Assembly (NCBI RefSeq): GCF_000327385.1
Contig: NW_008709540.1
Location: 24,238-88,237, forward strand
Source of the DNA: Lottia gigantea
Taxonomy: Eukaryota
Reading direction: 5' to 3'
DNA length: 64,000 bases
Positions 3,011 through 43,100 of the stretch are shown one piece after another; position 1 is the first letter of the stretch, and every line of letters starts with the position of its first letter. A model generated the notes under the pieces. It was not told the DNA's origin. It searched no databases and saw only the letters and a list, made by a program, of their open reading frames with translations. Both the position numbers and the translations under genes were made by a program.

Positions 3011-5150
3011 TGATCTCTACCCCTAAATGTCGCTAAGGATTAAAGTATAAATGAACTGAGTTGAACTATGGTCGGTTGAAATCTAAATGTCAAACTGAAA
3101 TCTCCACCGAGTCACAGTGGTCCGTTATTTAATAATATTCTTAATTTACAATAGTAAAATAATAGTTAAATCATAGCAAGTAACATTCTAATGGTTGAGA
3201 AGTGGACGGAGTGGTTTTCATATAATTATCCACAGGTCTTGGAATAGCAATCAGCTGCAATGTAGAAATGTAGATCAGAGATATTTTAAACTCCAATAAA
3301 CATAATATTCTACAATAGAATAAAATTCTCAATGAAATCACTAACGACTATCATGAAATCGTTCTGAAAAACACTTTGTTTAATATGTCGCCATATAAAG
3401 ATTACATGACAGTGGCTATAATACTATAGAGACTGGTTGAACCAAGGTGAAACCCAAAGGGAGGCTCTACCCCACGACTAAAAATACAAAATAAAAAAAT
3501 GGCCTAAAGTATACACATGTAAACCAACTAAAGCCCCGGTCCCACTGAGCATTTAGAAATCTGCGATGGTCTTGCGATTGTGCACTTTTGTCTTTTTCTA
3601 TCGCCAGTGTTCGCAAACCATCGCAAAGCCAAGTGGGGCTGGGGCTTAAGCAACCAGTAATATATATACATGAGTGAAATAGCATTAACTACAGACTGAA
3701 GGACTTTAAAATCTCCCATTAACAGACATTACATTGATTTACAGATGGGTCTCAGAATGGAAGAGAGCGTTTGTTAAATAAAAAACGGAAGGGCCCCAAC
3801 CTATATTAGTCCACGGCCTCCCTCTCATCTAGTTGAGTCACTGTGCATGATCTCCCATTAACATAACAATCTATAAAAAATATAGACATTTTATTACATA
3901 ACATTATTATATAAGTTAATTATATCACAATATATTTATATATACAGATATCACAGATAAAAAATAATACCTACATTCATAACTTTACACTTAAATATAA
4001 ATTATTTAGTAGGTCGGAAGGGATGAAGCGATTGGTCGTTCGAATTGGATAATCAACAGAAGGCCATGTGCCACAGGATGTGGACGTTAAATAGCCTTCG
4101 ACAGTTGGAAATCGAAAGAGAAGGCTAATTAATGTCCTACCCTCATATTTCACTACATGGCGCCTAAACAGGTTCAGAAAAGTTTTTAGGACTTTTAATC
4201 TTCATTTTATTTAGTGCTCTATTTATACCAATAGTATTGTTTGTCAAGTACGAAAGTGATTTTCTAGTCTTTTTATTAGCTACAGGTATTAACTATCAGA
4301 TCCAAACGTCCAGTTGTTCCCCATGGGCATAACGTAACTTTCACTTAATATACTTAAAGTGACACTACGTCTTAGAATGAACATAAAAGTTCTCAAGAAT
4401 GGTCAATATGAGTATATATTCATCTGTTAGTTTACCTGGTGTCATAAAGTTACACAAGAATCCCTGTCAATTCTGGAAAATTGGAAAATTCATAAAACTA
4501 AGTATTGATTGAGAAACGCTTAATCATAATATTAAGCTTTTTTCATTAGTTAATTGCATTTTTATGGATAATTACTAAGTTTTTTTGGATTTATCAGATT
4601 ATATCAGGATCCTGTTATGTTATTTATGACACCAGGTATATCTACTGATGAATATATGCTATTATTGGCCAAGTTTAAAATTCTTAAATTTTATGTTCAT
4701 TCAAAGACGTAGTATCCCTTTAACATTGAAATGGTGTTAACAGAAGCTACTTCGATGAACAAAACTTAAAAGCTATCAATCTCCATGCGAGAGAAACAAT
4801 ACTATTGGATTCATTTCATGAATAATTTCAGCAAATATAACCTCAGACGTGTTTCACTAGAGTGACAAACTTCTCTGTGGCTCGGTAATTAATATTAGTG
4901 AACTCGTTTCACAAATAATGTTAACAAATATCTCAATATGGGTTGACAAAGCATCTTGTATCACTATAACATTTTCTCGTTTCCTAAATATTTTTCACTA
5001 TCACTATCACTACAGGCTCGGCAAGTATCAGCATTGGACTCGTTTCATGTATAATGCATATATATTTCACTATGGATAGATCAGCGTTTGGACAGGTTTG
5101 ATTAATGATATTTTTAAATAGTTTATAATAGCCTAACTAATAACATGATG

Positions 5151-6167
5151 TCAAGGATGAAATAAATCCCTGATCATATCAACTCGTCCATCCGACTCGA
5201 TATAACCACGTCGTAGATTTCTCTCCGTATAGCGAGTCGGAGATCTGTAGCGTACACGCCGTGGACTCGGAGCTAGTCGTGTTGTTCGGACATAGTTGGC
5301 ATACATCCGAGGTGGTTGTGGCGTTAGAGGTACTTCTTCTACGACTAATGGCGACGGACTCCGACGTACCACAACGCGTTCTCTGATCGGAGCAAGTGGT
5401 AAAGGCGGAGACGGACTTAGTCGCATCACTGGAGAGGAACTACGGTACACTCGATGATAATTGGACGCTCTAGACAAATTGACAGATCCAAAAGTTTCAC
5501 TGAGTCCAGTCAGGGGACGAGGAAATCCAATACCCCGACGCACTGGCATGGGCAGATGATGAAAACGCGGTCGGATTACTGGAGGTAATTGTTCTACGGA
5601 CACACCGTTACGAATGATCGGCGTTGCGTACAGATGATAACGTCCATCATTGACAACGATTTTCACATCCGTCCTTGGATACACACCGTACGTTTCACGC
5701 AACTCTGACCGTAGATTAACTGGTAGCGTGTCAAACTGCCCGATGTATTCGTTCGTTGGAATGAAATCCCCGTAGACCAGTGTTCCGTCAATGGTATACG
5801 ACCCGCCTTGGAGCACAGCTGGAGAGCTTTCAATCCGTACTTGGCTGGCCGCAGCAATCGGAGGCAGGACTGGCATGGATTTATAGGGTGGAGGATATTT
5901 TCCGACCATCGAGTGATAAACGTTTGGTGCGTACGGTGGTGGGTTATAGTGTCCTATAACAGGCTGACTGTCAAAACCTACAGCATCTGCTACTGGGGTG
6001 GAGTAGTAGTCTCCGAACGGTAACATACCCTCATGGTGGTAGGTCATCTGGGAGGCAGTGACGGGATCTAAGGGTGTTACATACGATGCAGCCCCACCCA
6101 CGCCTTCCCCATAATGCTGTTGATAAACCGGTTGAAGTTCAGGCGGGAGGAGAGAATTGTAGGCCAT
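5151..6167 (-). CDS. Single-exon ORF of 338 aa encoding a Pro/Tyr/Arg/Ser-rich, Cys- and Trp-free protein with two PPPY (PPxY) motifs and a basic RS/RY-rich C-terminus. No recognisable domain.
   Basis: An uninterrupted 1017-nt ORF in a region where random ORFs are short. It is visibly more GC-rich than its AT-rich flanks and shows coding-like codon periodicity. The ATG is at 6165-6167 and the TGA at 5151-5153. A TATA-like 'tatattcattatatcaag' lies ~100 bp upstream on the minus strand. There are no internal GT-AG signatures interrupting the frame. Confidence 0.55.
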   Translation of the reverse strand: MAYNSLLPPELQPVYQQHYGEGVGGAASYVTPLDPVTASQMTYHHEGMLPFGDYYSTPVADAVGFDSQPVIGHYNPPPYAPNVYHSMVGKYPPPYKSMPVLPPIAAASQVRIESSPAVLQGGSYTIDGTLVYGDFIPTNEYIGQFDTLPVNLRSELRETYGVYPRTDVKIVVNDGRYHLYATPIIRNGVSVEQLPPVIRPRFHHLPMPVRRGIGFPRPLTGLSETFGSVNLSRASNYHRVYRSSSPVMRLSPSPPLPLAPIRERVVVRRSPSPLVVEEVPLTPQPPRMYANYVRTTRLAPSPRRVRYRSPTRYTERNLRRGYIESDGRVDMIRDLFHP

Positions 6168-9009
6168 TTTGGATGTTTCTTATTTGTTAAGTCAAATTAC
6201 AAATCCATTGTGCAGAATCAATAATCACCAGAATCACCACGACAGCAACGTTAGTTTACTGTCTTGATATAATGAATATAACACTGTTCCTATGGAATAT
6301 TTCAGACGCAGAATTCAATTGTAGGGGAATGGATATATCGACTTAATCCAAAAGCACAGAAACAGCGTTCAAATCGAAGAGTATCAAAAATTACAAAGTA
6401 CACTTTTTGAATACCGTACACTATCTCAATCAAGATGTTCCTTGGAAGGTTTTGGAAGATTTTAGCTGTTGATAAGGTAAATACAAATCAATGCGTCTTC
6501 TATTGCTGGACAAACCTTCCCCTATCGATTAATTCCTTCCACAAAAATTTCTGAATTTACTTCCACGTGGTACTCCGAATCGTTCCAGGAATAATTCACG
6601 CGTTTCTGATGATGCGGGAACAATTTAAACTTTGATAATGGCACAATTGATGAAATAATGTTACGGAAACCCTAACAAATCGTCCATTTTGTTTGGGTGT
6701 TGTGCATTATGTCAAGTTGTAACCAACCAACGCTGGTCGTAAACCATTGTCAGCTCTCAATACCCATCGACTCAATAGCAACCAAACGACTTGTACAACA
6801 CGACAATGAAAGGGTTAACCTATCAATAAAAGAAGGGTTTTGCTGAACAGTTAAATGTATTTCTGAACAATGAGGCGTTTTGTTCGACTACATTCTATTA
6901 GATATAACTAGAGTAAATAATATATAGTATTAAAGGCCCGTGATTATTAGCAATAATATACAAATAGGGGTGTTTATTAAAGGGAATGCACCGTTTGGTA
7001 TTTTCATAGTGTACTACAGTATATAGGGTTTAGGAAATAAAAGGGTTTTCAAGTTTGGGTTAATGAACATTTGCCATGTGAAGTAGTGGGCAGGTGTAAA
7101 ATGTTGCAAGAACAGCTTCATTAGTCTATTAGCTCTCGCTTTTCCTCGTCAGTTCCTACTACCATTAGCCCTGCAGGGTAAAGAGGGCCTGGAAGGCATC
7201 ATGTCGGAATCTAGCCCACACCCTTTGACTAAAAAACAGCTGAACCACCCGATTCCTTTGAGTTTTGGAAGCTGTCTTGTTCTTCATACAGAACAGTTTC
7301 TTATCGCGTGTATTAATGAGTCATGTCTCTCAAGTCAGAAATATTTTCTTTGTTGATGCAGTAGTTGGCCTGAAAATGTTTATCACATATCCTTGATTTT
7401 CCACTCGATCCTGTCCATTTTGTCTGTAAGTAGTACAGTCAAAATGAACCACCTTGCATTCCAAAACCTCTCATTGGTTTAACAGAGAAAATGAACACGA
7501 TAGGATGTTTATTCCCATCTATCTTGATAAATACAGGAATATTACTCGGCTTATATTGAAATCTCATTGATTTTGTCTGCGTTTTGTGCATTTGGGGGTG
7601 TTGAACATAACCCTTCGTGATACTAAACATGTTTTATCTTTCGTATTATGATATCAATATTCTACTTTTCTGTCCTCCTCATTACAAGAAGACTGTACCC
7701 AGACCTCGAGGGTAGAGAGCACGAGTCAAACTGGGGGCAAATAGAAGCATTACAATAAAGACCTTCCAAAATGGGAGCAGTTAAACTGACCATATTTTGA
7801 TGTATTTGGGCTTTTGTTACTTTATAATTGCAGATGACCTGATCAGAACCATGGTGCAGCTGAATTGGAGAAACACTTTTGTGTGCCCTTTCCATGTTCT
7901 GTTATCGAGTCTCTAGGGCATGACCCAGACCCTGTCCCATTCATATGACTCATGTGGTCAAGTCTGCTTTTCGATATCAACATCCCCTGCAAGTGTTTGT
8001 ATGACTCGGAATGCTCTGTGGTAAGAGTTCCCTGAATACTAGTGTTTAACAAGGTACCCTATGCTCTATCCTGCCCAAACCAGTGGCCTCTTGTTTTCTA
8101 TAAGTACTGACGGCAGTGGTGGAGCCAGGTTTACGTCCGAGGGAGGGGGGCCAAATATCTGAGATTGCCAGATTTTCTAACCAAGTTATGAGATTTTTGC
8201 CTGAAAAACTTGCTTTCGGGGCTGCGAGGATGGGGGGTGGGGGTGGTCTCCTTTGGCTCCGTCACTGACTGACGGCAATTATTGAGCTACAGCATTCCAT
8301 CTAAAAGGTGCTGTTGAGTGGACATGCTCCGTCGGAAAGCTCCATTGGAACTCGGAGGTTTACAGAAGGACCCATTCTTCCCTCAGTTCCTTTCGTTTCC
8401 TTTCTCTTAAATGTACGTTAGGAACTCTGATACAATCTTTGGCTTTATGGGAGTCCCAGGCCTGAAATTGATTTTAAAATGATGATATACAGCTTTATTT
8501 CAAAACGTTTAAAATATCACAGTAGTGGGTTGTGGTATAAAAAATGATAAATAACAATTCTCAATAAAATAATCAATAAATAGAAAATCAAGCGACGTGG
8601 ATGTGAATGGTTTAGACGTAGAAAAAGTATTATTTTATTTGAATACCGGTGACATTATTCTTTACAGGGATTTGAAAGGGGTTTGTATCCTTTTGAATGT
8701 TTATTAAGACCTGTATATGTCCAACATGGCGGTCAAGCCTCGATAATGATACCAATATGGGTGGATGCTGGATATAGAAGTAAACCTGAATCAATACACT
8801 AACAAAACAAGAGAGGCTTGACAATTTCTTTTTAATCTATGATAAGTTGGGTCACCGTCTGGTCATTAAGGGTGAAAACAGGTTGCTAAATATCTGACTT
8901 GTTTCACAGACTTAAGAATTAGTATTATTTGCCCACTGTATAGTGTATTGTAACAAGAGAATATACTGTCTGTGTGTTGCACTATGTCTGTGATATGATA
9001 CAAGACTGA

Positions 9010-9179
9010 TCAATGTTCCACCTGAACTAAGGCAGGGAAAGTTCTCATTCTTAACCGTTCTACTTCAGCACGTAATACAGCCACTTCCTGGGCCTGTGCC
9101 TTGGCTAAATCTACTAATTTTCGTCTCTGTACTATTTCTTTATATCTTTTCTCTGCTCCTGTATCTAGTCTTCTTTCAG
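9010..9179 (-). CDS. CFAP57-like terminal coding exon encoding ERRLDTGAEKRYKEIVQRRKLVDLAKAQAQEVAVLRAEVERLRMRTFPALVQVEH*.
   Basis: Acceptor tttacag| at 9180. The TGA stop is at 9010-9012. Confidence 0.55.
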
Positions 9180-12100
9180 CTGTAAATAAATCAAATTAGG
9201 ATTAATGCCTGTTCTATATCTTGTTGGTCCAATAAAATTTAGTTTTATACTCTCCTGTTCTGAATCAAATATGGCCAACAAGGCATAACTTATTGGGCCA
9301 AAGAAATTCCATGGAGTATTAGAGGCAACTCCCATTATTCTGTACCTTAATGTACTAAAATGTTGTTCTAGCAGTGCATCTTTTAAGGGTAATGAAGCCA
9401 GCAGTGTGTAGTGAGAGAATATTGTCCAATATTGTGCATTAAGTTCCTTAGATATTTCCCAAGCGTTGACAGATCTTTATCATGCACATCCTGCATCACA
9501 TAGAACCCCCTTTTTACCTCGCCCTTTTTGTTCTGCATGAATAATGGAAAAACAGAAGCAAGTGATTTGTTGATTCCCCACAGATCCTTCCTAAAGCAAA
9601 GGGAGGTAACTTATCATTCACAAATCAGACCTACCATTAACATCATCAATATGTTTTCTTTCATTAACTGAAACATTAATCTCAGTCAGTTGACTATCTA
9701 GGTCTTGATTAGAAGATTCCTTAGTTCGTATCGTCTTATTTAAATCTTTTAATATTTTTCTTTTTTCACTGACGTTCTTCTCATGTGTCTGAAATAATTA
9801 TAATAATAGATCTGTAAGGGAGGCTGTCAGTCAAGCAAAATGCATACTTTACAAAATGCTTTCTGCCACTTGGAGAAGTGAGCTCGACATCTTTCAGAGG
9901 GCAACATGTTTCTAAGTTTTGCCTTTTAAATTTGCTATCATTTTACATAGTAAAAGAATAGTCTGTGGGACCCCTGGATTAATTTGTGACCCCCTCACCT
10001 AATGTTTCCTAGATACTCCACTGCAAAAGGGTCCACATACATGTAGTTTAATAATAACAATTTGGTAACTGGGTTTGTTAACCAAGTCATCTTCAACAGA
10101 AAGCCATATATTGTCTTATTAAAAGTCTATAACAACTGTAACAGAGCTTTTATTTACCTTTTTGAGTAGTTGTAAGGTTTGCTCCAAAATTAAAATATCT
10201 TGAGTTTTCTTCGATACATAATCTTTCTCACTCAGATACTATAAATATATATATATATACATTGGATTAGTATCAAACATAATTATTACTATTTTATTTC
10301 TATATATCACAGAGTATTTTAAAATGACGAGTTGTCAATTTAACATTCAAACACAGATAATTCTAGACACACATGTATTTAAAGGTTCAAATTTCGATGG
10401 AGAGCTGTGAACACTAACACTGATTGGCTTAGCTAAATTCCTGTTTCTGAGACAAAAGTATGATTGGTCCAAAAAAATGATGCATCTGTCCCTTTAACCT
10501 CCTCCTAAGCAGAAGCAGAAATGTAGACGTAAAACTCCTGGCCTTGTAGTTACATATCAAGGGTAGGTGTTGGAGTGGAAAGCGCTCCTTAAAAGTGAAA
10601 TTGAGGCCAGTGAATGAGTACAATTAAATTGGTCAGGAATAATTACCAGTGTTCTCTCTAATTCAACGCTACAATAAAAAATACATGTGCATTTTCATAA
10701 TAATGATTGGGATAACTTACAGCTTGTATTTCTCTAGTAACCTTCATAAACTGTATATCTTTCATTTTATTCTGTAGATCATCCATTTCCATTAACATTC
10801 TCTTGTGTTCCCTGCAAGTACAATAAACATCTTAAACCCTCTAGTCTGCTAGACTAATACCTTGCCTGCAATAGCCACCTTCTTTGAAACACAGAATGCA
10901 GCGATTTGATTGGATTGTACACTAGAAAATACAGCCAAGCAGTCTGTAAACAATAAGCCATAATGTTTACAGTCTGTCTGTATGAAATTGCATGTCCTTT
11001 TCATTTACCAGTTGTTGCTATATACAATAATGCTACGAAGTGCAGGTTTTGTATTGACTGAAGTCATTTCAATTCGTACAATTCCATGGTGTACTCTGTA
11101 AGTGAAACATGCTTTTAAAGGAGTAATAATTTGACACAGTAGAAGTTTAAAGTAAGATAGACATAAATAATGGATATTGGCAGTTTACCATTCTAACTGT
11201 ATTATTCCTTTTCTAAAATCTTTACTGTCCATCATACTAGCTATCTTCTTCTCTCCATATTGCTAAAAACAAATCATTAGTTTCAGTTGATAGATGTAGA
11301 ATGTAGTCAATAAGAATATATTTAGTTATTTTAAACATAAAATGTCTTCGATATTAGTTTCGATAATGAATGGAGGTTCAGATTGCAGTCAAAGACATGT
11401 CTTAACACAAATTCTAAACAAAAATTGCTTCTATATTAGTTTCAATAAAGAATGACAGAGACAGAATGCTATACAAGAACATATTTTTACAGTTGTTTTA
11501 AAGGATAGCCTAGAAAGACAATCAATATACTGTAAGTTGTCATGTTTTCAGAATTCAAACTTTCAAAATGGATTTAAATTGTTCCTATCTTGTTTTGTTT
11601 GTTAGATGACATCATTCCTCACTATTCCAGTCAATTAAAGTAAAAAGTACAAATTTTCAGTAAAGTACAATTCTTTTGAAATATTCTATTGATAAGTTTA
11701 TTAAGTATCTGAAAGTATATCTTACTTTAATAGTTTTATTCAGGTCTTCTACCACACTGCGATGTAAGAGAGCACTAGGTTTAAAATCATGGACAAATCT
11801 TCCTGCATCAACTTCTACTTGACCTTGTTTTAATAATAACTGAACTTCTAAATTAATTGTAAATCTTTGACGGTCTTCTCTTAATCTGAAATAAATAACA
11901 TGAAAATATCTTAAAATGTACTGACAATAATTAAATTAAGTTAATGAAACAGTTTGGCCAAGGACTAGCTGGAAGAAAAGATCTTCATACACCTAAGTGC
12001 TTATCCTTGTAGAATATAGTTGTATTTGTTTCTTTCCAAGTTTTTGTAATATTCTATGTAATGGTTCTTTCTTTCTTTGAACCCTTGAGCACTCTCAATC

Positions 12101-15100
12101 GTGCAGCTGTAAATGGGTTTGTATCATCAAGGGAAGATCAGTGGCAAGAGGTTTGGTCGTGGACGAACATCTGGTAGAAAATATCCTTGCCAATTAATAA
12201 GTGACACATAATGCTTATTGCCATAAAAGTAAGTAAATAAATATAAACTGTGCTAACCTGTTTATTTGTGTCATTATATCTTCAGTTTCATTTCTCAAAC
12301 TATCTTCCTCTTCTTGTCGTTTTTGTAAAAATGCATTCATTTCAGCTAGAACTAAAGCTTTAGTTTTTACCTGTAAATACGAACAAAAAAAAAAACTTAA
12401 TACATTTACAAAACAGGCTTATCACATTGAATGTCATTTTTCTTATCTTCCCCTCAACTGAAGGTTGATTTTATTCCAATTTGAATTAGAAATTTGAAAA
12501 CAGTGAGATAACAGTGTGGTATTGAGGAGGAAAAAGAAGGATTTATTGATCCTGTATTGAATACAGTGTATTTATAATTTCAACATAGTAGGATAAATAA
12601 TGACATTGGGATCATGTTTTTCCACCAAGAACTGCCAAAATCCAACAACATCATAAACAAATTTCAAGATTAATTGTAGGGTAAGTGTTAAAAAGATTTG
12701 ATACTCACCAGTTGTTCACTCTCTATTTTTTCCCGTCGATAATGACAAAGACGTTCCCAGATCTGGACTTCCAAGTTCTCTGGCATGTTAGATTGTCTGT
12801 CCAGTTCCTCTATAGCTTGTTCCATGGCTATTTTACTCTGAGCATTTTGACGTGCTGTAGATGGTCGTTCAGCGAATGGATTGGGAGCTGACGGATCTAA
12901 AACTGGTGTATCTGCTCCTTTAAACTTCTGACCTCTATAATATTTAAATTGACACAATTGTATTTATACTCTCACATCAAATAGTCTCACATATTGTTGT
13001 TTTGAAGAGGAAGGGGGGTGGGGGAGTGGTTTAAATTCATCAAATAGTCTCACATATTGTTGATGCTGTTAGACAAAGTTTTGAGAGGGTGGGGGGGTGG
13101 GGGGGAGGGAGGAGGGGGGAGTGGTTTAAATTCAATTGTTTTCAGACTCCCACATGAAATATGGGAACAAATTTGTTTTGCCCCTGTTAGTCAGTTTAAT
13201 AAAGAAAGAGTTGTTTTGTTGAAGTAAAAGAACTATGTGATTGTATAATAGAAATTGGCAAGTTAAATCATCATGATTCATGTTAATGAAAGAATTATAT
13301 AAATTCAACCTCCAGTTGTCTTGAATAAAGAGTTAACCTACCTAGGCCTCTTTTTAAATAATTTAAATAAAGTATCAGCCATTACAGCAGAAACATCGTT
13401 AAATTCTCTTCGGAAAGTTTTATCCATTAATTTATCTTCCGCCAACAATCGATCATAATCGTCGCGGAATTTCTCCAGGTTTTTCTTCGACTCATTCACA
13501 GCTTCTGTAGTCAATTGCTAAAATGGTTCCATTTTCAAATTTCAATAAAAAATCTAGTAATGGTTTTTTACTAATTTATCATTTCATCGAAACAACCTTA
13601 CAGAAGATGGTTGGTTGGTAAATGACATCTGCTTCCTGTTAACACATGGCTGATATCACAGACTACCCCCTCATAAGACAATAACGCCCTCTTCCCTACT
13701 CATTCTTAGCATTATTGACCAGGGGAAACCATACTTGAATATCCATACTTTCTCAAATATTTATTTCATTTCTCCAAATACACTCTTCTTAAACTTTTGC
13801 CTCAAACTGGAACCTTAGCATCTAAAACTGTAGCTTACCTTCAAAACTCTCTTGTGTTCTAATTTAGCATTTAGTTCATGTTCTTGTATTTCTAATTCCT
13901 CTTCTAATAATAAATTATACCTCAACCTGTTGATCTTTAGATCTTCCTATAATTAATATAAAACATTCCCTTAACCCTTTTCACAGAGAAACACAGAGTC
14001 CTTGATTCAACAAATTTAAACAAAGATAAAACCAGATTTTAAAATATACGACAATTTGTTCATTATGATTGAAATTGTTTTCAAATATTGATTAAACACC
14101 AACAAAAACTGAGTCTTTGATAAGTATTAATTAAAACTAATAAAGTTATTGTCTATTTCATGCATTTCCAATGTAGTATTTAAAAAAGGTTTTGAGGTTT
14201 TGAGACAAAAATTCTTAGACCATTCTTCTTCAACCATGACAAATGATTCTCTATAAAAAATAATAAAGATTTCACTAGACTTAAAATCAACAATACTGAT
14301 TATAATTTCTGTATATACCTGATATAAAACCATCATAACTTTCACTTTCTTCATAAACAATTGATTTAAAACTTCATCAAAACCAGTCATATTATCAGCT
14401 ATCACCTGTTCTAATTTACGTAACTCTGTTTCTAATTGCTGAAAAATAAGATTTTACCAGTCGATTAAAACATAAATATAAAAAGCAAAAATTGTCTAAA
14501 ATATTGCTTTCTCAGTTAGAGCCCCTAGAAAAATGGTTTGTACCCCCATTTGATTTTCAAAAATATAAAATGTGTTTTTTACTTGTTTTTGCACAGAAAT
14601 ACAGGTCAAAATGCACCAAGTGTATTCTATCATTAAAAAATTTTCTTTCGGGACACTAATCTTAATATTTTTTTTTATCTCAACCTTGACAATATTGTAT
14701 CTCAATTAAAACAGTATGCTCCTGACCCTGTCATTGCAGTTTGGGTCTCTGTTTATTGTCTGGATGGTAACAGAAGACAACTGTAGAAAAATGAAATAAA
14801 ACCTAACACCTGTCTTTAAATCAGAGAGTTTAGATTCCTACCTTTCTGTATTTTTCTCTTTCTTCCTTCAAATCCTGAACTTTCTTTTCATATTCTTTAG
14901 CTGATTTCACCTCCTCTTCTGTCCATTCTTCAGACTCTTTCGTTGTCATAAATAATGGTTTAGGGACATCCTGTAAAATATATATATATAAATTGAATAA
15001 CCTTAGTTGTAGATTATATTCAAATAAAGAGTTGACCAATTTACCAAAAATAAATGCATTACAAACTCTCTGTGGATCCTCTGAAAGGGTGGACTCTCTG

Positions 15101-18100: not shown

Positions 18101-21100
18101 TCAAAATCAACACCAAGCAGTGTCGCCAGCTGGTAAATAGGATCCTCATGAACCTTAGTTGTTATCCTTGTAAAAGCATTATCGAGAGGTTTGGCCAACT
18201 ACCAGCTGATAAACGGTATCCTTGTGAATCTTCTCACCTGCATTACTGACAAGGAGACAGCAGAATATGGAATATCATAAAATATAAAAATTTCTCACTG
18301 CCAGAGAAACAATAGGAATAGAAATGAAATGAATGGAGTTTTACTTCCTACTTTTCTGCACCATGTGGGCTAATGAAGACGGGCAACGTCATGCAGGGTG
18401 CAATGAGGAAAATTTTGCCAGGACAGTGGCATAAGCCTTCTCTTTTTTTTGATTTCCAAATGTAGAGGGATCTTTAATGTACACAGTCTGTATCAGGAAT
18501 AGAAGACATAAGATATAAATCATTAACTTACTGCAGTAGATGTTGATTTTAAAGTTGGTTCTAAAACAGCTTTAGTTGCCTAAAATAGAAAATATTCGTT
18601 GTCTTGATGTAACAAATATTACTAAAAAGACTCATAAATACAACATATCACAATGTATTCATTGGTCAACATATCCCATTGTATTCATTGGTCAACATAT
18701 CCCATTGTATTCATTGGTCAACATATCCCATTGTATTCATTGGTCAACATATCGCATTGTATTCATTGGTCAACATATCACAATGTATTCATTGGTCAAC
18801 ATATCACATTGTATTCATTGGTCAACATATCACAATGTATTCATTGGTCAACATATCGCATTGTATTCATTGGTCAACATATCCCATTGTATTCATTGGT
18901 CAACATATCATATTGTATTCATTGGTCAACATATCCCATTGTATTCATTGGTCAACATATCGCATTATATTCATTGGTCAACATATCACAATGTATTCAT
19001 TGGTCAACATATCGCATTGTATTCATTGGTCAACATATCCCATTGTATTCATTGGTCAACATATCGCATTGTATTCATTGGTCAACATATCACAATGTAT
19101 TCATTGGTCAACATATCCCATTGTATTCATTGGTCAACATATCACAATGTATTCATTGGTCAACATATCGCATTATATTCATTGGTCAACATATCACAAT
19201 GTATTCATTGGTCAACATATCACATTGTATTCATTGGTCAACATATCACAATGTATTCATTGGTCAACATATCGCATTGTATTCATTGGTCAACATATCA
19301 CATTGTATTCATTGGTCAACATATCCCATTGTATTCATTGGTCAACATATCGCATTGTATTCATTGGTCAACATATCACAATGTATTCATTGGTCAACAT
19401 ATCACATTGTATTCATTGGTCAACATATCACAATGTATTCCTTGGTCAACATATCACATTGCTTTAGTTCCCAGTCATGAGTCTAAAATACTTACCTCTG
19501 CAGCAGATATTTCCATCTGTCTCCTGGTCTGAACTGTTTCTAATAACTCCAGGCTTTCCTTACGTCTATCTTTCAGAGGAAAGTTAGCCACCTCCAGCGA
19601 GGAATTATACGCCTGCAAATAACATATACAATAATAATATATTTATAGATGGAAACTATCTTATACCATAATTGGTCTCATGGGTAACCCAGAATCACAC
19701 TCCCTGTGCATCGAAGGAATTTAGGGAAATTTTGTAGCTTTTGTATGTGGATCATCCATAGTTATACGTCATATTTACAGAATTTTGATTTTCTAGTCTT
19801 TGTATGTGTATCAGGTACACTTATAGCTTCTATTTACACCATTCTGATTTTCTAGTCTTTATATGTGTATCAGGTACACTTATAGCTTCTATTAACACCA
19901 TTCTGATTTTCTAGTCTTTGTATGTGTATCAGGTACACTTATAGCTTCTATTTACACCATTCTGATTTTCTAGTCTTTGTATGTGTATCAGGGACACTTA
20001 TTGCTTCTATTTACACCATTCTGATTTTCTAGTCTTTGTATGTGTATCAGGGACACTTATAGCTTCTATTTACACCATTCTGATTTTCTAGTCTTTGTAT
20101 GTGTATCAGGGACACTTATAGCTTCTATTTACACCATTCTGATTTTCTAGTCTTTGTATGTGTATCAGTGACACTTATAGCTTCTATTTACACCATTCTG
20201 ATTTTCTAGTCTTTGTATGTGTATCAGTGACACTTATAACTTCTATTTACACCATTCTGATATTCTAGTCTTTGTATGTGTATTAGAGACACTTATAGCT
20301 TCTATTTACACCATTCTGATTTTCTAGTCTTTGTATGTGTATTAGAGACACTTATAGCTTCTATTTACACCATTCTGATTTTCTAGTCTTTGTATGTGTA
20401 TCAGTGACACTTATAGCTTCTATTTACACCATTCTGATTTTCTAGTCTTTGTATGTGTATCAGTGACACTTATAGCTTCTATTTACACCATTCTGATTTT
20501 CTAGTCTTTGTATGTGTATCAGGGACACTTATAGCTTCTATTAAAACATAAAATATTGTTACCTGTATAGAGCGACCTTTAACCTTCATATCTTCCCAGC
20601 ATTCCTTGTAAATCATTTCACGTAGATACATCTTCGCCAGATTCTCAAATTCTATTTCCTCACGCACCTATATCAAAAAAATACTTTCATTTGAAAAATA
20701 TGACTAATTATCTAAATAGGACAAACCTAAAATAAAATCAGGTTCTAGATATATGAGAACATTCTTGTATATTCCTAATGGACAATGGCTCAACTTGCAT
20801 CTTTCTGACATACAATCATCATCAGTACAGATGATTTTTAACTTTCCAATAGGATCTTTAAGTGTGTGGGAACGAAAGGGAATGAGCAAGAGTTAGAAAT
20901 CAGTTGCAGATGTTTAGACACCACAAAACTTGGTATTTTGCGCCTATGAATGGCAAAAACTTCAATAAATATTCCTTCATTGTATGCAAGTCTCAAGAGG
21001 CCATGAAAATTCTCGAGATTTTTTTTAAGTGCATAATTTCATTGACATTGAAAAGGATAGATTGATCAATCAGATTACATGCAGATAACACCAAATCATC

Positions 21101-24100: not shown

Positions 24101-27100
24101 CAGCCACGTTTTCTGGAGGGCAATCAATAATTTTGGGGGAGCTATGACCCCCTCCACCCTCCCTGTAGCTATGGGCCTGGAATATACTACTCCTTTCTTT
24201 AATTTTAGATAAATAGGGTGCAAAAATTAAAGGAAGGAGCCGTGTATCCATTGTAGTGCTTCATTTCCTATTGAGATAATATGTTCGTAAGATTCACTGA
24301 AAATCATGGCTTAGAGAAATAGGCGTACCTGTAGTAATATCAGCAGGAATGGTAAAATATATTAGTTTATTGGCACCAGATCGTTTATCAGTATGGGTAC
24401 TGGTTGTCACGACAACTTTTACATCTTTATTACTGTTTATACACGTCATAGCTATAATATCTCCTTCAAATTCTACAATATATAAATACAGTCATAGCTA
24501 TAATATCTCCTTCAAATTCTACAATATATAAATACAGTCATAGCTATAATATCTCCTTCAAATTCTACAATATATAAATACAGTCATAGCTATAATATCT
24601 CCTTCAAATTCTACAATATATAAATACAGTCATAGCTATAATATCTCCTTCAAATTCTACAATATATAAATACAGTCATAGCTATAATATCTCCTTCAAA
24701 TTCTACAATATATAAATACAGTCATAGCTATAATATCTCCTCCAAATTCTACAATATATAAATACAGTCATAGCTATAATATCTCCTTCAAATTCTACAA
24801 TATATAAATACAGTCATAGCTATAATATCTCCTTCAAATTCTACAATATATAAATACAGTCATAGCTATAATATCTCCTTCAAATTCTACAATATATAAA
24901 TACAGTCATAGCTATAATATCTCCTTCAAATTCTACAATATATAAATACAGTCATAGCTATAATATCTCCTTCAAATTCTACAATATATAAATACAGTCA
25001 TACCTATAATATCTCCTTCAAATTCTACAATATATAAATACAGTCATAGCTATAATATCTCCTTCAAATTCTACAATATATAAATACAGTCATAGCTATA
25101 ATATCTCCTTCAAATTCTACAATATATAAATACAGTCATACCTATAATATCTCCTTCAAATTCTACAATATATAAATACAGTCATAGCTATAATATCTCC
25201 TTCAAATTCTACAATATATAAATACAGTCATAGCTATCATATCTCCTTCAAATTCTACAATATATAAATACAGTCATAGCAATAATATCTCCTTCAAATT
25301 CTACAATATATAAATACAGTCATAGCTATAATATCTCCTTCAAATTCAATAAATATATAAATACAGTCATAGCTATAATATCTCCTTCAAATTCTACAAT
25401 ATATAAATACAGTCATAGCTATAATATCTCCTTCAAATTCTACAATATATAAATACAGTCATAGCTATAATATCTCCTTCAAATTCTACAATATATAAAT
25501 ACAGTCATAGCTATAATATCTCCTTCAAATTCAATAAATATATAAATACAGTCATAGCTATAATATCTCCTTCAAATTCTACAATGTATAAATACAGTCA
25601 TAGCTATAATATCTCCTTCAAATTCTACAATATATAAATACAGTCATAGCTATAATATCTCCTTCAAATTCTACAATGTATAAATACAGTCATAGCTATA
25701 ATATCTCCTTCAAATTCTACAATATATAAATACAGTCATAGCTATAATATCTCCTTCAAATTCTACAATATATAAATACAGTCATAGCTATAATATCTCC
25801 TTCAAATTCTACAATATATAAATACAGTCATACCTATAATATCTCCTTCAAATTCTACAATATATAAATACAGTCATAGCTATAATATCTCCTTCAAATT
25901 CTACAATGTATAAATACAGTCATAGCTATAATATCTCCTTCAAATTCTACAATATATAAATACAGTCATAGCTATAATATCTCCTTCAAATTCTACAATA
26001 TATAAATACAGTCATAGCTATAATATCTCCTTCAAATTCTACAATATATAAATACAGTCATAGCAATAATATCTCCTTCAAATTCTACAATATATAAATA
26101 CAGTCATAGCTACAATATCTCCTTCAAATTCTACAATATATATACAAACATCTTGTCATTGATCTTTGCAATTGATTTTACAAAAATTCCAGTTAGATTC
26201 TTTAAAAAGCTGAGTTATTATTGTCCTTAATAGATTTGAGAAATTCTCCCTTTCTTTCCTAGTGCTGTACTACTGTATGTATCATTCCATCTTTACATTA
26301 TATGCTGTTAGAAAATCAATTCGTTTACATGAAAGAAATATTGTCAAATTTTGAAATGAAAACTTAATAAATTCTCACCAGTATATCCTAATACATCAAA
26401 CCTAGTAGAGGGTCTACCATCTATAATATAAACATGTTGATCATTACCAGCTACTAATAAATAGTCTCCATCAGATGAAAACCTGAAAATATTACCAAAT
26501 TTAATATTCTATAGTTTTACACCTTACTGGGCTGGGGGAATGGAGTTTTACACTACATTTAAGATTTACTATGTTTCTTGTTCCAGACCAGAAATACTGA
26601 TCTACACCTCTGATTTTATTTGGGTTTATGAAATAAACAATTATTTAAATAATAAGAATCTAACATTCTGCTGTTCACAGCTCTTTGGGTTGAAGACAAG
26701 AAATGAAGTTTAAATAACAACAAACAGGGCTCCATATGCTAATCTAACCAGCCCAATAGCTGATGATATGAAATGAGGTTTTTACAAGATACTTCAATAA
26801 ACTTACTGTAAATGTGTGATAGGAACTCGAGCCATTCTGATTCTATCTACTATACGAGGAGACTGGAAGTTAGTGTAGTCTATAAAGTAGACAAATCCAG
26901 TCTGTGTTCCTACTGCTACCAGATGAGTCATTGGACTACATGATAAACTAACAGTCTGAAATAAAGAGTATGTATTTAATGTTATTTAATGAGTATGTAG
27001 ATCAGACAACAGAAAGTCTAATGTAAGTTTTTTGTTCAAGAACCATACATCTGATTAAATAAAGGAACACAATTTTATGGTATACTACTCCTTAGTTTTA

Positions 27101-30100: not shown

Positions 30101-32416
30101 CTGTGGTAAGATGACATATTGATCATTACATTGTTCAGTCTGCCAGATTGTAATGGAGTCGACTGTAGTTAGACAGAGTTGACGCCAGTTACACGGATCA
30201 AATCCTAAACTGGTTGGAACTTCTGATCCAATATGAACTGTGGCTAGTTTGATTCCTTTCTCATAATTCCTGAAATTAATATCAGGCATTTCATTGGAAC
30301 AGGACTTTCTCAAAGGTTTACTACAGGACTTTCTCAAAGGTTTGGAACAGGACTTTCTCAAAGGTTTGGAACAGGACTTTCTCAAAGGTTTAGAACAGGA
30401 CTTTCTCAATAGTTTAGAACAGGACTTTCTCAAAGGTTTAGAACAGGACTTTCTCAAAGGTTTAGAACAGGACTTTCTCAAAGGTTTAGAACAGGACTTT
30501 CTCAAAGGTTTGGAACAGGACTTTCTCAAAGGTTTAGAACAGAATATTCTCAAAGGTTTAGAACAGGACATTCTCAAAGGTTTAGAACAGGACATTCTCA
30601 AAGGTTTAGAACAGGACTTTCTCACAGGTTTAGAACAGGACTTTCTCAAAGGTTTAAAACAGAACTTTCTCAAAGGTTTGGAACTGGACTTTCTCAAAGT
30701 TTTGGAACAGGACTTTCTCAAAGGTTTGGAACAGGACTTTCTCAAAGGTTTATAACAGGACTTTCTCAAAGGTTTATAACAGGACTTTCTCAAAGGTTTA
30801 GAACAGGACTTTCTCAAAGGTTTAGAACAGGACTTTCTCAAAGTTTAGAACAGGACTTTCTCAAAGGTTTGGAACAGGATTTTCTAAAAGGTTTGGAACA
30901 AGACTTTCTCAAAGGTTTGGAACAGGACTTTCTCAAAGGTTTGGAACAGGACTTTCTCAAAGGTTTGGAACAGGACTTTCTCAAAGGTTTACTACAGGAC
31001 TTTCTCAAAGGTTTGGAACAGGACTTTCTCAAAGGTTTGGAACAGGAGTTTCTCAAAGGTTTGGAACAGGACTTTCTCAAAGGTTTACTACAGGACTTTC
31101 TCAAAGGTTTACTACAGGACTTTCTCAAAGGTTTACTACAGGACTTTCTCAAAGCAGGTAATTTTTGAAATTTTTGTGGAAAAAATAAGGTACTTTGTAG
31201 TCTAGCAAAAAATAAGGGAGATAATTTTCAATAACAAGTTTAAAATTTTGATCTTCTTAAGATAATTTGATAAATATTAAATTAATAATAACAAAATATA
31301 CATAAAATATTTAATTTACAAAATATTAGACTATTTCAATGAGCTATTGTGGTAAAAACTCTTAAATTTCAATTGAAATGATGTGTCAAGGGAGATAACT
31401 ACAATAAAAAATAATTTTGTGTCTTAATATAGTGATTAGAGATATGGCAAGCAAATTGCAATGAAGAAATAGCTAGGAAGACAACAGTGTAGATAATCTT
31501 GCCTATTCTCTACCGAGTGTTCGAATAGGTGATTGTATGTAGGACATGGGGCTTGTTGAAATTAAAGAGTTGCAGAATTATGCCTACCATAAAATAAGTT
31601 CGAAATCTGGTAGTCCAGAAATAGCTGCTAAATATTCACTGTTAGAGAATGTCAATTTCTGATATTCTAACTTGGCGCCATCTGAAATAACAAAATTATA
31701 AAAAATAACTTAAACATAGTAGGTGGGTATGTCTATGTTTCAACTAAGCTTATAATACAAAAATTCAATAGATACTAATCAACATATTTCAGTTTTCAGA
31801 AAAATGTAAATCTTACTCAATAAAAAAATTATAAGATTTAGAAGTACAGTACAGTAGTAAGAGTAACCATATGTTTGAAACATACATTCTAAACAATTTA
31901 TTCCTGATACTGGTGCCTTGTCTATAAATAGAATTCAATAAAAAAACCAAACAGTTTAGGCCAATGTAAGAATTCAGAAACAATGGTTTGAAGCCTTCAC
32001 ATACCAAAAAATAACATGAATAATGTAAAATCTTTTCCTGCATCAAAATTTAAATGTCAAAGCCTAGAAAAAACTTGGTAGTGCTTTTCATGAGTTCTAA
32101 ATTTATTTCAAAATCTGTTTCTTTAAAATAACAGTAAAAACACAGAAGAATATATTATAACTAACCTTGTAAGACCATATGTTCTCTAAATGTAGGGTAG
32201 GTATAAATATAGATTTTAGGATTTATACAATATTCAGCTATTGCTATGTGTTTGTTTAATTTATGAACAGCTATGGGTCCTACACCTTGTCCTTTAAAAG
32301 CGAACACTGTTTCCACTCCATCTTCAGCTATTATTTTAATATTCCGACCACATTGATAACATAGAACATCACCGTCGATATACTGAGCTTCTCCACCATT
32401 GTACCCTTGACACCAC
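9010..32416 (-). CDS. Multi-exon gene for a WD40-repeat plus coiled-coil cilia/flagella-associated protein, CFAP57/WDR65-like (the CFAP43/44 family is not excluded). This is the gene-level span. Most of the locus is intron.
   Basis: The N-terminal exons translate to ...VFAFKGQGVGPIAVHKLNKHIAIAEYCINPKIYIYTYPTFREHMVLQ|DGAKLEYQKLTFSNSEYLAAISGLPDFELILW|NYEKGIKLATVHIGSE... This is co-linear with the human CFAP57 N-terminus (…GMLALSISPNRRYLAISE…ITIYELSS…[31 protein letters not shown]…). Downstream exons encode WD-repeat-like and then E/K/R-rich coiled-coil segments, for example 'EKFLTPEQKKQAEAKQKAEEERKLREK'. All junctions examined have canonical GT donors and AG acceptors with consistent phases. 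The terminal exon ends ...LRAEVERLRMRTFPALVQVEH*. Exons upstream of 32416 (the ATG exon) were not resolved. Confidence 0.6.
12709..12940 (-). CDS. CFAP57-like exon encoding ...ADTPVLDPSAPNPFAERPSTARQNAQSKIAMEQAIEELDRQSNMPENLEVQIWERLCHYRREKIESEQL. The 5' boundary is uncertain.
   Basis: Strong donor |gtgagt at 12708. There are two candidate acceptors, near 12935 and 12943. Confidence 0.45.
13010..13135 (+). repeat. Local tandem duplication carrying long G-tracts (…gggggggtgggggggagggaggaggggggag…). It is a strong G-quadruplex-forming motif on the template strand of the CFAP57-like gene.
   Basis: Direct repeats 'catcaaatagtctcacatattgttg' (two copies) and 'agtggtttaaattca' (two copies) flank G-runs of 6-7 residues. 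Similar G-rich palindromic patches occur at 8100-8260 and 24060-24180. Confidence 0.5.
14841..14970 (-). CDS. CFAP57-like coiled-coil exon encoding DVPKPLFMTTKESEEWTEEEVKSAKEYEKKVQDLKEEREKYRK. Boundaries are approximate.
   Basis: Acceptor ttttacag|. Donor |gtagga. Confidence 0.45.
15255..15425 (-). CDS. CFAP57-like coiled-coil exon encoding VTVEKFLTPEQKKQAEAKQKAEEERKLREKGDNIRERALDMMMGGVLEIKKEDELKK. It is 57 codons long, phase 0 at both ends.
   Basis: Acceptor attttag|. Donor |gtggga. Confidence 0.5.
18335..18440 (-). mobile_element. Partial (3' part) copy of the same SINE family, in a CFAP57-like intron.
   Basis: The reverse complement matches the SINE 3' region (…ggcaaaattttcctcattgcaccctgcatgacgttgcccgtcttcattagcccacatggtgcagaaaa). 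Confidence 0.5.
18640..19465. repeat. Minisatellite with a 26-bp unit (CATTGGTCAACATATC[ACG]CA[AT]TGTATT) in about 31 copies, in a CFAP57-like intron.
   Basis: Period counted directly (18661 to 18687 to …). Variable positions are confined to 2-3 sites per unit. Confidence 0.9.
19790..20545. repeat. Minisatellite with a 59-bp unit (…TTCTAGTCTTTGTATGTGTATCAG[GT][GT]ACACTTATAGCTTCTATTTACACCATTCTGATT…) in about 13 copies, in a CFAP57-like intron.
   Basis: Period 59 counted from 19791 to 19850 to 19909. Confidence 0.9.
24450..26145. repeat. Minisatellite with a 46-bp unit (ACAGTCATAGCTATAATATCTCCTTCAAATTCTACAATATATAAAT) in about 37 copies over ~1.7 kb, in a CFAP57-like intron.
   Basis: Period 46 counted from 24451 to 24497 to 24543. 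Very high inter-unit identity with scattered point variants (agct/acct/agca). Confidence 0.9.
27240..27335 (-). mobile_element. Diverged partial copy of the same SINE family, in a CFAP57-like intron.
   Basis: …gttaatgaagatggacaacagcatgcagtgtgcaatgtgggcattttgcaaaaa… resembles the reverse complement of the SINE 3' region. Confidence 0.35.
29621..29882 (-). CDS. CFAP57-like WD-region exon encoding ...RVPVADPSQEIDDEKDQDRSPTRASTRMSRYTVDVPKAAIAGLIGDNTEYLQTIQDKLERCSPVSQAWTPTGDVFIGCQGGQLLK. Boundaries are approximate.
   Basis: Acceptor ttatattatag|. Strong donor |gtaagt. A GC-rich island within the AT-rich locus. Confidence 0.45.
30102..30269 (-). CDS. CFAP57-like exon encoding NYEKGIKLATVHIGSEVPTSLGFDPCNWRQLCLTTVDSITIWQTEQCNDQYVILP.
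   Basis: Acceptor aatttcag|. Donor |gtaagt. Lies immediately 3' of the 24-bp minisatellite intron. Confidence 0.6.
30290..31150. repeat. Minisatellite with a 24-bp unit (GGACTTTCTCAAAGGTTT[GA]GAACA) in about 36 copies, in the CFAP57-like intron between the exons at 31588-31681 and 30102-30269.
   Basis: The period of 24 is a multiple of 3 and the unit is stop-free on both strands. This explains the long 8-aa-repeat ORFs (SKPLRKSC and EQDFLKGL) in the ORF track. Confidence 0.9.
31588..31681 (-). CDS. CFAP57-like exon encoding DGAKLEYQKLTFSNSEYLAAISGLPDFELILW.
   Basis: Acceptor ttatttcag|. Donor |gtaggc. Phase is consistent with the flanking exons. Confidence 0.6.
32166..32416 (-). CDS. CFAP57-like coding exon, the most 5' exon resolved. 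It encodes ...WCQGYNGGEAQYIDGDVLCYQCGRNIKIIAEDGVETVFAFKGQGVGPIAVHKLNKHIAIAEYCINPKIYIYTYPTFREHMVLQ.
   Basis: Acceptor tattttag| at 32417. Donor |gttagt at 32165. There is no in-frame ATG and a stop lies upstream in frame, so an earlier exon must exist. Confidence 0.6.
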
Positions 32417-40192: not shown

Positions 40193-43100
40193 CTGAAATA
40201 AAATCAAAACATCATCAGTTAACATCAGATTAAACTGAAGCAGCTGAAGGATTTCATAATATACGTGAAATCATAAAATAAAAGGGATTGGTGTAGCCAA
40301 AATATATGAAAGTAGAATGCATGTTTGTAGGGATATGGCTTGAATAGGCTAAACACTGTGATATAGTGATACAACAGAAGTTAGGTGAAATGCAAGAAAG
40401 GCTTTTTAACCTAATTTCTTACGATAATAAAGTGATTATTATTAACAGTAATATTTTGGAATCTATCCCAATATAGATGAATTCTTTCGTCAATCCCCCA
40501 ATAGAGAGCTTAGTTAAAGTTCATACAATGCTTACGCCGATTTTTTGTTTTGTTAAAATATAAATAATTATCCTACCTTGGTTTCTGGTCCAGCTCGTGC
40601 CATGGCCTTTAATGTTTCTACTCCCAGAGCATTTACTTTATTTTCAAAGTTATTGATCTAAAATACAAAATAATATTGTGGTAATTACAAATACTCTCAA
40701 CAAAAATCATACATTTCAACCCTGTTGTGTTCATTAACTGGAGATTTGCCTTAAAAAATCTGGAGATTGGCCTTAATAAATTTGTGAATTATAACATCCA
40801 AATTGGTTTTTTTTCTTTTTTTTATCTTTTTTCTTTTAAATAAGCCTTAAGCTATGTAAATTATTTATGAAAGGCCTATTATAGGTCTATATGATGCAGG
40901 AAAAGTGAATTACAGCTACCCTTATTTTCAAACACACAAGACAGTCCATTGCAAGCTGTGTCAATAAATAAAGGTGACACAGTGACATTGAATGACTAAC
41001 CTACACTGATGTCCGGCAAAGGATATTCATCCTCGGTCATTTGAGCTGCCCTGCCGGTCATGTCTGGAAAATAGAGTCAAATAAATAACTGCCTAATAAC
41101 TCACCTCAATGGCTGCCATTCTCTTAGTTCTGTTTAATTCCAGTTCATTTTCTTTCCTTAAATAATCTATTTCATATCTTCTCATCTATAGAATCATATA
41201 GAGAGAATTAAATAATCTATTTCATATCTTCTCATCTATAGAATCATATAGAGAGAATTAAATAATCTATTTCATATCTTCTCATCTATAGAATCAAATA
41301 GAGAGAATTAAATAATCTATTTCATATCTTCTCATCTATAGAAATAAATAGAGAGAATTAAATAATCTATTTCATATCTTCTCATCAATAGAATCATATA
41401 TAGAGAATTAAATAATCTATTTCATATCTTCTCATCTATAGAATCATATAGAGAGAATTAAATAATCTATTTCATATCTTCTCATCTATAGAATCAAATA
41501 GAGAGAATTAAATAATCTATTTCATATCTTCTCATCAATAGAATCAAATAGAGAGAATTAAATAATCTATTTCATATCTTCTCATCTATAGAATCAAATA
41601 GAGAGAACTAAATATTCTATTTCATATCTTCTCATCTATAGAATCAAATAGAGAGAATTAAATAATCTATTTCATATCTTCTCATCAATAGAATCAAATA
41701 GAGAGAATTAAATAATCTATTTCATATCTTCTCATCTATAGAATCAAATAGAGAGAATTAAATAATCTATTTCATATCTTCTCATCTATAGAATCATATA
41801 GAGAGAATTAAATAATCTATTTCATATCTTCTCATCTATAAAAATAAAATAAGTGGTATGAATTAAATGAAATAAAACAGAAGCATAAGATATGACAATG
41901 TTTGATGCTATTGGGCAAATTTTAACTAAACGAGATTTCAAAAAGAATTCATGAGATTAAAGATGACCAGTGTAATAAACTGTCAATAATCAAAGAAACA
42001 AAACATCTAGATCTACAATGTAATCAGTTTGCAATGAGTTCATTCTGGAGTTAGTCTCGAAGATGAAGAATATTATCAGTAATATTTATATATCTAACTA
42101 ACCTGTATTTGAGATAGAAGTTTTGCATTATGTTCTATTGTCATTGCCTCCGCTTTTAATTTAGCAGCTGTAATATAAAACAAAATATCATGTGTAACTT
42201 TAATTAACATATATCATTACATTCTTTCAAATCAATCAAAATCTGTGATAGCTACATCATAAAATGCATTGTTTAAATGTAATCATAAAATCACAGGCAT
42301 CTGTCTGAAAATTGGAATTTGCAAATCGATACTACCACTTAATTTAAGAAATATCCGTGATGGACCCATTCAGGTAACCATGATTATATCTAAAGATTTT
42401 ACTTGATCAATTAAACCTTGAAGAAGTCTTTACTTATGATTCTAGTTCCAGTTGTAAATAAGTAAGGATAATCCAGGAAAGATCAATCCCTATAAGTTTG
42501 TCAAGTACCAGCTGGAATCCTTTTCTTTCTTTCAATCTTTTTCTACCTACCTTCAATTTCACTGTGACATTCTATCAGAGTTTTCTCAGCGTTGGCCTGG
42601 GCTTCAGCTTTCGCCTGCCCAGTTGATTCAACAGCTGCTGTCATTGCACATAATTCTAATAACTTTGTTCTCTCCCTTTCTGAGTTACGTTCATTAGCCA
42701 GTTTCTGACGTTCTAGGTTGCCCTTAGCGATTTGTTCGTTTCGTTGAGCTTCGTGTGATGCTGCTGCCTCCACAGAACTTGAAAACAAAACCAAGAAATA
42801 TCTCTGAAGTACATGTCTTTACCATAAAACAAAATATCTGTATCTTATTCTGTATTTTTACGAAAATTCAGTAATCTGATTGGATAATTAACTCAATTTG
42901 AAATCAATATCTATGATTGACATCTGTTTGAAGTTTTAAGAATAAGGTCCCAGAAGTTTACTAAAGTTATTGTATGAATATCATTATTATTCGGCAAGCC
43001 CTTTTTAGGATAAAATAGTCGTACCTAGTAGATATTTCTATAGCCATTTGAACTGATTTACTCAGTGAATCTCTCATCTTTCTATCAACAGGTTCAATAG

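Follow-up and report, generated by a model that had tools for sequence, protein, structure and literature searches.

The question raised by positions 5151-6167 of the 64,000-nucleotide stretch of the Lottia gigantea genome considered here (contig NW_008709540.1, positions 24,238 to 88,237 of the forward strand; referred to below in its entirety as the window) is whether the 339-codon open reading frame (ORF) found there is a gene and, if so, where it came from and what its product might do. The initial annotation had described it as an intronless, GC-rich ORF coding for a protein with no recognisable homology, and had suggested a retrogene, a recently acquired viral or transposon-derived gene, or a lineage-specific protein. 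As outlined in the following, we regard it as practically certain that the ORF is a genuine single-exon protein-coding gene and a divergent member of an old, unnamed family, the named members of which come only from gastropods and bivalves and which is defined by a domain of about 66 amino acids (aa) with a hairpin-helix-hairpin layout, situated between low-complexity regions. The gene and the neighbour used to place it are:

5151..6167, minus strand: complete single-exon coding sequence (CDS), ATG to TGA, 338 codons plus stop, the stop codon being at 5151-5153
9005..13960, minus strand: 3' exons of CFAP43, a separate gene given as context (Pfam CC_Cfap43, E 4e-138; collinear with Patella by tblastx and blastn)

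With respect to the reality of the gene, a protein search of the kind proposed in the initial annotation returned the L. gigantea hypothetical protein LOTGIDRAFT_164164, which is 100% identical over its full length, together with an orthologue from Patella vulgata (LOC126814330, an uncharacterized protein of 380 aa) with 47% identity across 97% of the Lottia protein. The two limpet proteins are collinear from the first methionine (MAYNSLLPPELQ) to the C-terminal RYRSPTRYT motif, they share the same motifs in between as well as the lack of Cys and Trp, and in both species in-frame stops lie directly upstream of the ATG. They differ by a 36-aa insertion in the N-terminal half of the Patella protein, by several insertions or deletions in the tail, and by the replacement of two PPPY motifs by PQPF and PPPF. 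In Patella, too, the CDS runs without interruption (positions 10001-11143 of the Patella locus L001), and thus the interruption in a close relative that had been named beforehand as the mark of a chance ORF or recent pseudogene is not seen.

In a codon alignment of the two orthologues, identity amounts to 63%, 73% and 33% at the first, second and third codon positions, respectively, and the proportions of nonsynonymous (pN) and synonymous (pS) differences are 0.31 and 0.82, the latter being saturated. It follows from these values that purifying selection has kept the protein while silent sites became randomised in the course of a long divergence. In addition, positions 13960 to 9005 of the window are collinear with positions 166-6851 of L001 (tblastx, blastn), with exons of 69-86% nucleotide identity, and gene order and orientation agree between the two species, CFAP43 lying upstream of the ORF, on the strand of the ORF, at a distance of 2.8-3.1 kb. 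Given this shared position, the gene is ancestral at the CFAP43-adjacent site in Patellogastropoda. CFAP43 ends in a conserved stop codon of its own, which in Lottia lies about 2.8 kb from the ATG of the ORF; the ORF is thus no terminal exon of CFAP43 but a gene by itself. CFAP43 itself, which codes for cilia- and flagella-associated protein 43, probably extends past position 13960.

The length of the ORF, in turn, is by itself weak evidence. When the window was shuffled 200 times by single nucleotides, the longest open stretch reached 189 codons at most, with a median of 125; however, about 0.04 ORFs of such length are expected per window given the base composition of the ORF itself, and minisatellite arrays in the window leave all three frames free of stops for 230-318 codons. 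These latter two observations are what the assumption of a chance ORF or a decaying pseudogene could draw upon, but a full-length collinear orthologue having the same start and stop region and carrying a clear signature of purifying selection leaves that assumption with virtually no credibility, and it is this conservation that settles the question. The uninterrupted frame of 339 codons and the gene call described in the initial annotation therefore both stand, on the strength of the Patella orthologue, the codon-position pattern and the CFAP43 synteny, and the strand, which had not been named, is the minus strand.

To place the protein, a profile built from the two limpet orthologues only was compared with 1.84 billion representative proteins at a threshold of E <= 1e-3. 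It yielded 28 matches, about 22 of them confined to the central segment; the matches P0003, P0006 and P0013 were discarded as repeat-protein false positives. All members of named source come from gastropod or bivalve molluscs and none is functionally annotated; many further members from SRA or ENA assemblies carry no species, and the restriction to molluscs accordingly covers the named members. Amongst the gastropods these are Patella vulgata together with P. caerulea (second paralogue, LOC126815447), Pomacea (C0Q70_08619), Gigantopelta (XP_041370082), Aplysia (LOC101851692), Nucella (two genes), Arion and Batillaria, and amongst the bivalves Mytilus edulis, M. coruscus, M. galloprovincialis and Potamilus. 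Most carry labels such as uncharacterised or hypothetical, and a few have spurious automatic names; the NCBI names 'SEC31-like' (Gigantopelta) and 'splicing factor 3A subunit 2-like' (Pomacea) seem to mirror nothing but a Pro-rich composition. The option of a lineage-restricted protein is thus the one that agrees with the distribution of the named relatives.

The members share an architecture consisting of an N-terminal VVSxKFGxRPLLxxP motif, a Pro/Gln/Tyr-rich low-complexity region that often carries a YYGPNGExLPGPP-like motif, a domain of about 66-68 aa, and a tail in which Arg makes up 10-25% in most members and about 4-9% in some others, frequently together with Asp, Glu and Tyr, and which is in some relatives R/D/E/Y-rich or built of GGRE[YF] repeats. 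The Lottia protein has the aromatic/Pro/Gln-rich region, the domain, the Arg-rich tail and the paucity of Cys and Trp, and its domain conforms to the family signature F-x-[LIV]-E-G-x-L-E-[YF]-G ... LP-x-FL-x-x-EL-x-K-T-Y-G-x-Y-P-x-T-[DE]-[VI]-[KR]-[IV] ... G-E-[YF]-H-[IV]-Y-A-x-P. In the reciprocal direction, a tblastn comparison of about 40 family proteins with the window produced a match only at 5541-5903. The canonical N-terminal motif, M-x-x-x-VV-S-x-K-[FY]-G-x-R-P-[LI]-[LI]-x-x-P, is absent from the Lottia protein and its Patella orthologue, which start with MAYNSLLPPELQPVYQQHYG and contain only the weakly similar stretches PVYQQHYG or LLPPELQ, the latter being a possible remnant; its absence marks a divergent subgroup, and the motif is not needed for membership at the level of the domain. 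Compared with the other members, with which the central domain is common at 30-44% identity, the Lottia/Patella pair is also without the RMIGFNEVR motif at the C-terminus, shows a deletion of two residues within the domain and possesses a tail longer and more basic than any other. A neighbour-joining tree groups the pair weakly with Potamilus-type members having LPPxxRP[RQ]F right after the domain.

None of the gene and protein identifiers looked up is mentioned in the searchable literature. Comparable cases exist in the spiralian-restricted motif genes lophotrochin and trochin (PMC7441323), which are likewise ancient and lineage-restricted and have a novel conserved motif or domain with no homologues outside. 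A relationship to them was considered and rejected: lophotrochin carries DUF4476 (PMC7441323), whereas the Lottia protein has no Pfam match, and the Lottia identifier is absent from the supplements of that study.

Within the protein, three regions can be distinguished, the coordinates of which are as follows:

5808..6167, minus strand: N-terminal region, aa 1-120, Tyr/Pro-rich, slightly acidic (isoelectric point, pI, 5.3) and predicted to be disordered (AlphaFold2, AF2; predicted local distance difference test, pLDDT, below 50 over aa 22-125)
5610..5807, minus strand: folded family-defining domain, aa 121-186 (GSYTIDGTLVYG...LPxxLRSELRETYGVYPRTDVKI..GRYHLYATP), from profile matches, AF2 and a hidden Markov model (HMM)
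5154..5609, minus strand: C-terminal tail, aa 187-338, Arg/Ser/Pro-rich and predicted to be disordered (composition, AF2, Patella alignment)

The central domain is the only region matched by the roughly 22 distant relatives. It scores 79.9 bits (E 1e-26) against the HMM of the family domain, and the columns L10, G13, Y40 and T46, which are invariant in the domain alignment, are all present in the Lottia protein. An AF2 model of the domain based on a 25-sequence alignment (pLDDT 84, predicted template modelling score 0.66) predicts a beta-hairpin (strands 4-11 and 14-17), a helix (30-40) and a second beta-hairpin (strands 45-53 and 56-64). The full-length model, based on a two-sequence alignment, is poor (mean pLDDT 41) and structured only at aa 118-183, in agreement with the earlier impression of a more globular middle between low-complexity halves.

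Pfam recognises no domain in the Lottia protein or in 27 family members, including no RRM, Gag, reverse transcriptase (RT), integrase or arrestin domain; the sequence profiles of PDB gave best E values of 0.68 and 0.93 for the domain and full-length alignments, respectively, and hence no match; and a Foldseek comparison with PDB and with the viral models of BFVD returned nothing at E <= 0.001. The best Foldseek matches (E about 0.2) are generic two-layer alpha/beta resemblances and no evidence of homology. The domain is thus one without a Pfam, PDB or significant fold counterpart. The statement that the protein has no recognisable homology accordingly holds for characterised families only and fails as a general statement, as uncharacterised homologues are found in molluscs. 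A POTRA protein, as suggested by the UniRef label on a 107-aa fragment from Batillaria attramentaria (KAK7494927.1), was also considered and rejected: none of 27 members matches Pfam POTRA at E <= 0.1, and the element order of the model is b-b-a-b-b in contrast to b-a-a-b-b in POTRA, so that the label seems to be a false assignment made automatically.

The composition of the product is as it had been described, namely rich in Pro, Tyr and Arg (46 P, 34 V, 32 R, 27 S and 26 Y amongst 338 residues, i.e., 14% Pro and 8% Tyr) and devoid of Cys and Trp. The GC contrast with the neighbouring genes is also real: the ORF has 50% G + C compared to 33% in the window, and its G + C content at third codon positions (GC3) is 0.42 compared to 0.26 in the adjacent CFAP43 exons, which were the ones used for this comparison. 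The raised values at first and second codon positions mostly reflect the Pro/Arg/Gly/Ala-rich protein. As a weaker form of the GC3 contrast is also present in the Patella orthologue (0.35), it is a property of the gene rather than the mark of a foreign origin. A 71-aa ORF at 5808-6023 of the plus strand and a 64-aa ORF at 5663-5857 of the minus strand, in another frame, overlap the gene; both arise from the higher GC content of the coding region, and nothing independent speaks for either.

The same GC3 difference from an adjacent multi-exon gene, together with the intronless CDS, which the present analysis bears out, is what a retrogene or a recently acquired viral or transposon-derived gene would explain. 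Nevertheless, such an origin is highly improbable, as the gene occupies the syntenic site next to CFAP43 in Patella and not the place of a recent insertion, synonymous divergence is saturated, and the family spans gastropods and bivalves. In addition, all four family loci read have an intronless CDS (Lottia, the Patella orthologue, the Patella paralogue and Mytilus edulis). Since the CDSs of the other three are intronless as well, intronlessness is ancestral to the family, and no intron-containing parental paralogue, as would be expected for a retrogene, is in evidence amongst the two Patella loci and the Mytilus locus. The Patella paralogue LOC126815447 (L003 9660-13128, chromosome OW026350.2, about 89.95 Mb) is located on the same chromosome as the orthologue, about 70 Mb apart, and adjoins a DDRGK-domain gene. 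Around the ORF there are no long terminal repeats (LTRs), terminal inverted repeats (TIRs), target site duplications, flanking direct repeats or poly(A) remnant, and of pairs that might bracket it as LTRs or TIRs only short chance inverted repeats could be found. Also a viral or transposon origin in particular gains nothing from the searches: Gag, RT, integrase and other Pfam domains are missing from the Lottia protein and the 27 members, neither the fold comparison with BFVD nor a protein scan of IMG/VR gave a match, and the gene is present as a single copy within the window.

Outside of the domain, conservation is not restricted to composition. The N-terminal region contains the conserved linear motifs MAYNSLLPPELQ, ASQMTYxHEG, SQPVxGHYNP, MPVLPPI and SSPAVLQ and is 62% identical to Patella, compared to 58% for the folded domain, and because it is conserved as well as the domain the predicted-disordered N-terminal half may be expected to hold functional linear motifs. 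It also has 14 evenly spread Tyr or Phe residues, 11 of which are aromatic in Patella, too. The C-terminal tail (26 Arg, net charge +16, pI 11.7, seven SP dipeptides) has kept 18 of its 26 arginines in Patella and contains the conserved motifs LPPxxRPRF, FPRPxTG, SVNLSRASNYH (5454-5486) and RYRSPTRYT (5226-5252). No hydrophobic N-terminus or transmembrane segment is found in the Lottia protein, the maximum Kyte-Doolittle hydropathy over 19 residues (KD19) being 0.73. An RRM/SR-type RNA-binding protein was rejected as an assignment: an RRM is not recognised by Pfam, the best RRM match amongst the PDB profiles (1ufw) has an E value of 1.9, and only four RS/SR dipeptides occur in the tail.

The N-terminal region also harbours the two PPPY motifs that had been read as WW-domain ligands:

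5931..5942, minus strand: PPPY motif 1, aa 76-79; aligned Patella residues PQPF, not conserved
5883..5894, minus strand: PPPY motif 2, aa 92-95; aligned Patella residues PPPF, not conserved

If the protein were an adaptor of this kind, the motifs would recruit ligases of the Nedd4 type or WW proteins of the YAP type, in the manner of arrestin-related adaptors or of the late domains of viruses. Both motifs are indeed present, canonical in form and situated in an accessible, predicted-disordered region of the Lottia protein, and in this respect resemble those of arrestin-related proteins, Ndfip and the late domains of retroviral Gag. In the Patella orthologue, however, Phe replaces both tyrosines within otherwise conserved surroundings (NPQPFAP and IPPPFKP), 18 of the 27 family members have no PPxY and the others have it at non-homologous positions, and the first motif aligns with the family motif [YF]-[AP]-[GP]-x-V, which is not a WW ligand. 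Moreover, chance PPxY motifs are to be expected in a protein so rich in Pro and Tyr, and the Lottia protein lacks an arrestin fold or other adaptor domain, a Gag capsid or zinc knuckle, and a membrane anchor. From the sequence comparison a conserved WW-ligand role is therefore unlikely, and a WW-binding adaptor is improbable as an account of the protein; of the earlier claim, the presence of the motifs holds and their function as WW ligands does not.

As to what the product does instead, sequence and models tentatively suggest an intracellular, mostly disordered multivalent scaffold or adaptor that would probably be associated with RNA or ribonucleoprotein (RNP) and regulated by phosphorylation; we hold this function to be rather less than evenly probable, and the explanation taken as a whole (gene, family and scaffold), which is the best available, comes slightly closer to even. 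According to this proposal, the small folded domain would make one specific contact, for which a protein is a likelier partner than RNA, since members throughout the family have an acidic to neutral domain. The Tyr/Pro-rich acidic N-terminal half and the Arg/Ser/Pro-rich basic tail would supply multivalent contacts, which would probably be directed to RNA or RNPs and which phosphorylation of SP sites may regulate. An intracellular location is suggested by the lack of a signal peptide or hydrophobic segment (see the KD19 maximum above).

Tails that are R/D/E/Y-rich or built of GGRE[YF] repeats, like those of some relatives, are typical of RNP or nuclear-body proteins, and a grammar of Tyr plus Arg is known from condensate-forming RNA-binding proteins. 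In support of a scaffold, it is the aromatic (11/14) and arginine (18/26) positions themselves that are conserved in Patella. By analogy, conserved Tyr/Phe in one disordered half and conserved Arg in the other may be compared to FUS-type Tyr-Arg 'sticker' proteins and to granule organisers such as Oskar and Bucky ball, with which the combination of a small folded domain and long disordered regions as well as a lineage-restricted distribution would also be shared. In contrast to these, the Lottia protein has no RRM, RGG or LOTUS, and there is no relationship in sequence or fold.

Several points weigh against the scaffold proposal. The role put forward here comes from sequence and models, the disorder has been deduced only from low pLDDT and composition, and Pfam finds no RNA-binding domain in the Lottia protein or in 27 members. 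Furthermore, a strongly basic tail is not universal, as several gastropod members have short acidic ones; RNA binding by the tail therefore cannot be the core function of the family, and the basic tail is a subgroup elaboration.

The main alternative assumes a nuclear co-factor of transcription or chromatin, the linear motifs of which would dock on DNA-binding partners and the domain of which would be a protein-protein module, with no role in RNA or condensates. It fits the many short and highly conserved linear motifs inside disordered regions, a basic tail in which nuclear localisation signals could reside, and a domain that, being acidic to neutral, is unlikely itself to bind nucleic acid. 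However, neither Pfam nor the PDB profiles recognise a known co-factor motif or domain, and although the present data do not separate such a co-factor from a scaffold, we consider it unlikely. Much less probable still is a secreted structural protein of the shell matrix, the periostracum or an adhesive: the Pro/Tyr-rich composition is reminiscent of other Pro/Tyr-rich mollusc proteins, but a signal-peptide-like hydrophobic N-terminus is present neither in the Lottia protein nor in the canonical N-terminus of the family (MVDPVVSSKFGKRP...), and the gene identifier is absent from the searchable literature.

Returning to the scaffold proposal, its furthest extension would be that the domain is a new module that arose in early molluscs and that its carriers are mollusc-specific organisers of RNP condensates, e.g., of maternal or germ granules. 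This we put forward as a long shot only, barely more credible than the secreted protein just mentioned; if true, the carriers would be functional counterparts of insect Oskar or vertebrate Bucky ball and yet unrelated to them.

Elsewhere in the window, a self-complementary (palindromic) element of about 370 bp, resembling a miniature inverted-repeat transposable element, is located at 4354-4723, about 430 bp 3' of the stop codon of the ORF, and has nested inverted arms at 4354-4391/4686-4723 (89% complementary) and 4400-4448/4623-4671 (82%). Minisatellite arrays are unusually dense (18641-19461, 19729-20542, 24439-26142, 30297-31154, 41158-41840, 43417-43792, 46651-47296, 47659-48320 and 48542-50231), with periods of 11-132 bp, 10-37 copies, 78-97% matches and a strong local GC skew, and could pass for ORFs. 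Beside the first of them, a sequence of about 100 bp at 18317-18419 is about 76% identical to positions 11495-11592 and 6445-6543 of the Patella locus L001, one of these copies being situated just 3' of the Patella orthologue; it may represent a short interspersed repeat common to both limpets.

The gene itself is already in GenBank as a hypothetical protein, and what is new is the definition of the family and of its domain, and their age. As the evidence stands, the family joins a large number of other orphan families and gives no reason to revise current understanding. The result does, however, add an ancient intronless family, never named or studied, with a clean domain definition suited to a new family entry, and families restricted in this way to one lineage are candidate sources of biology peculiar to a phylum.

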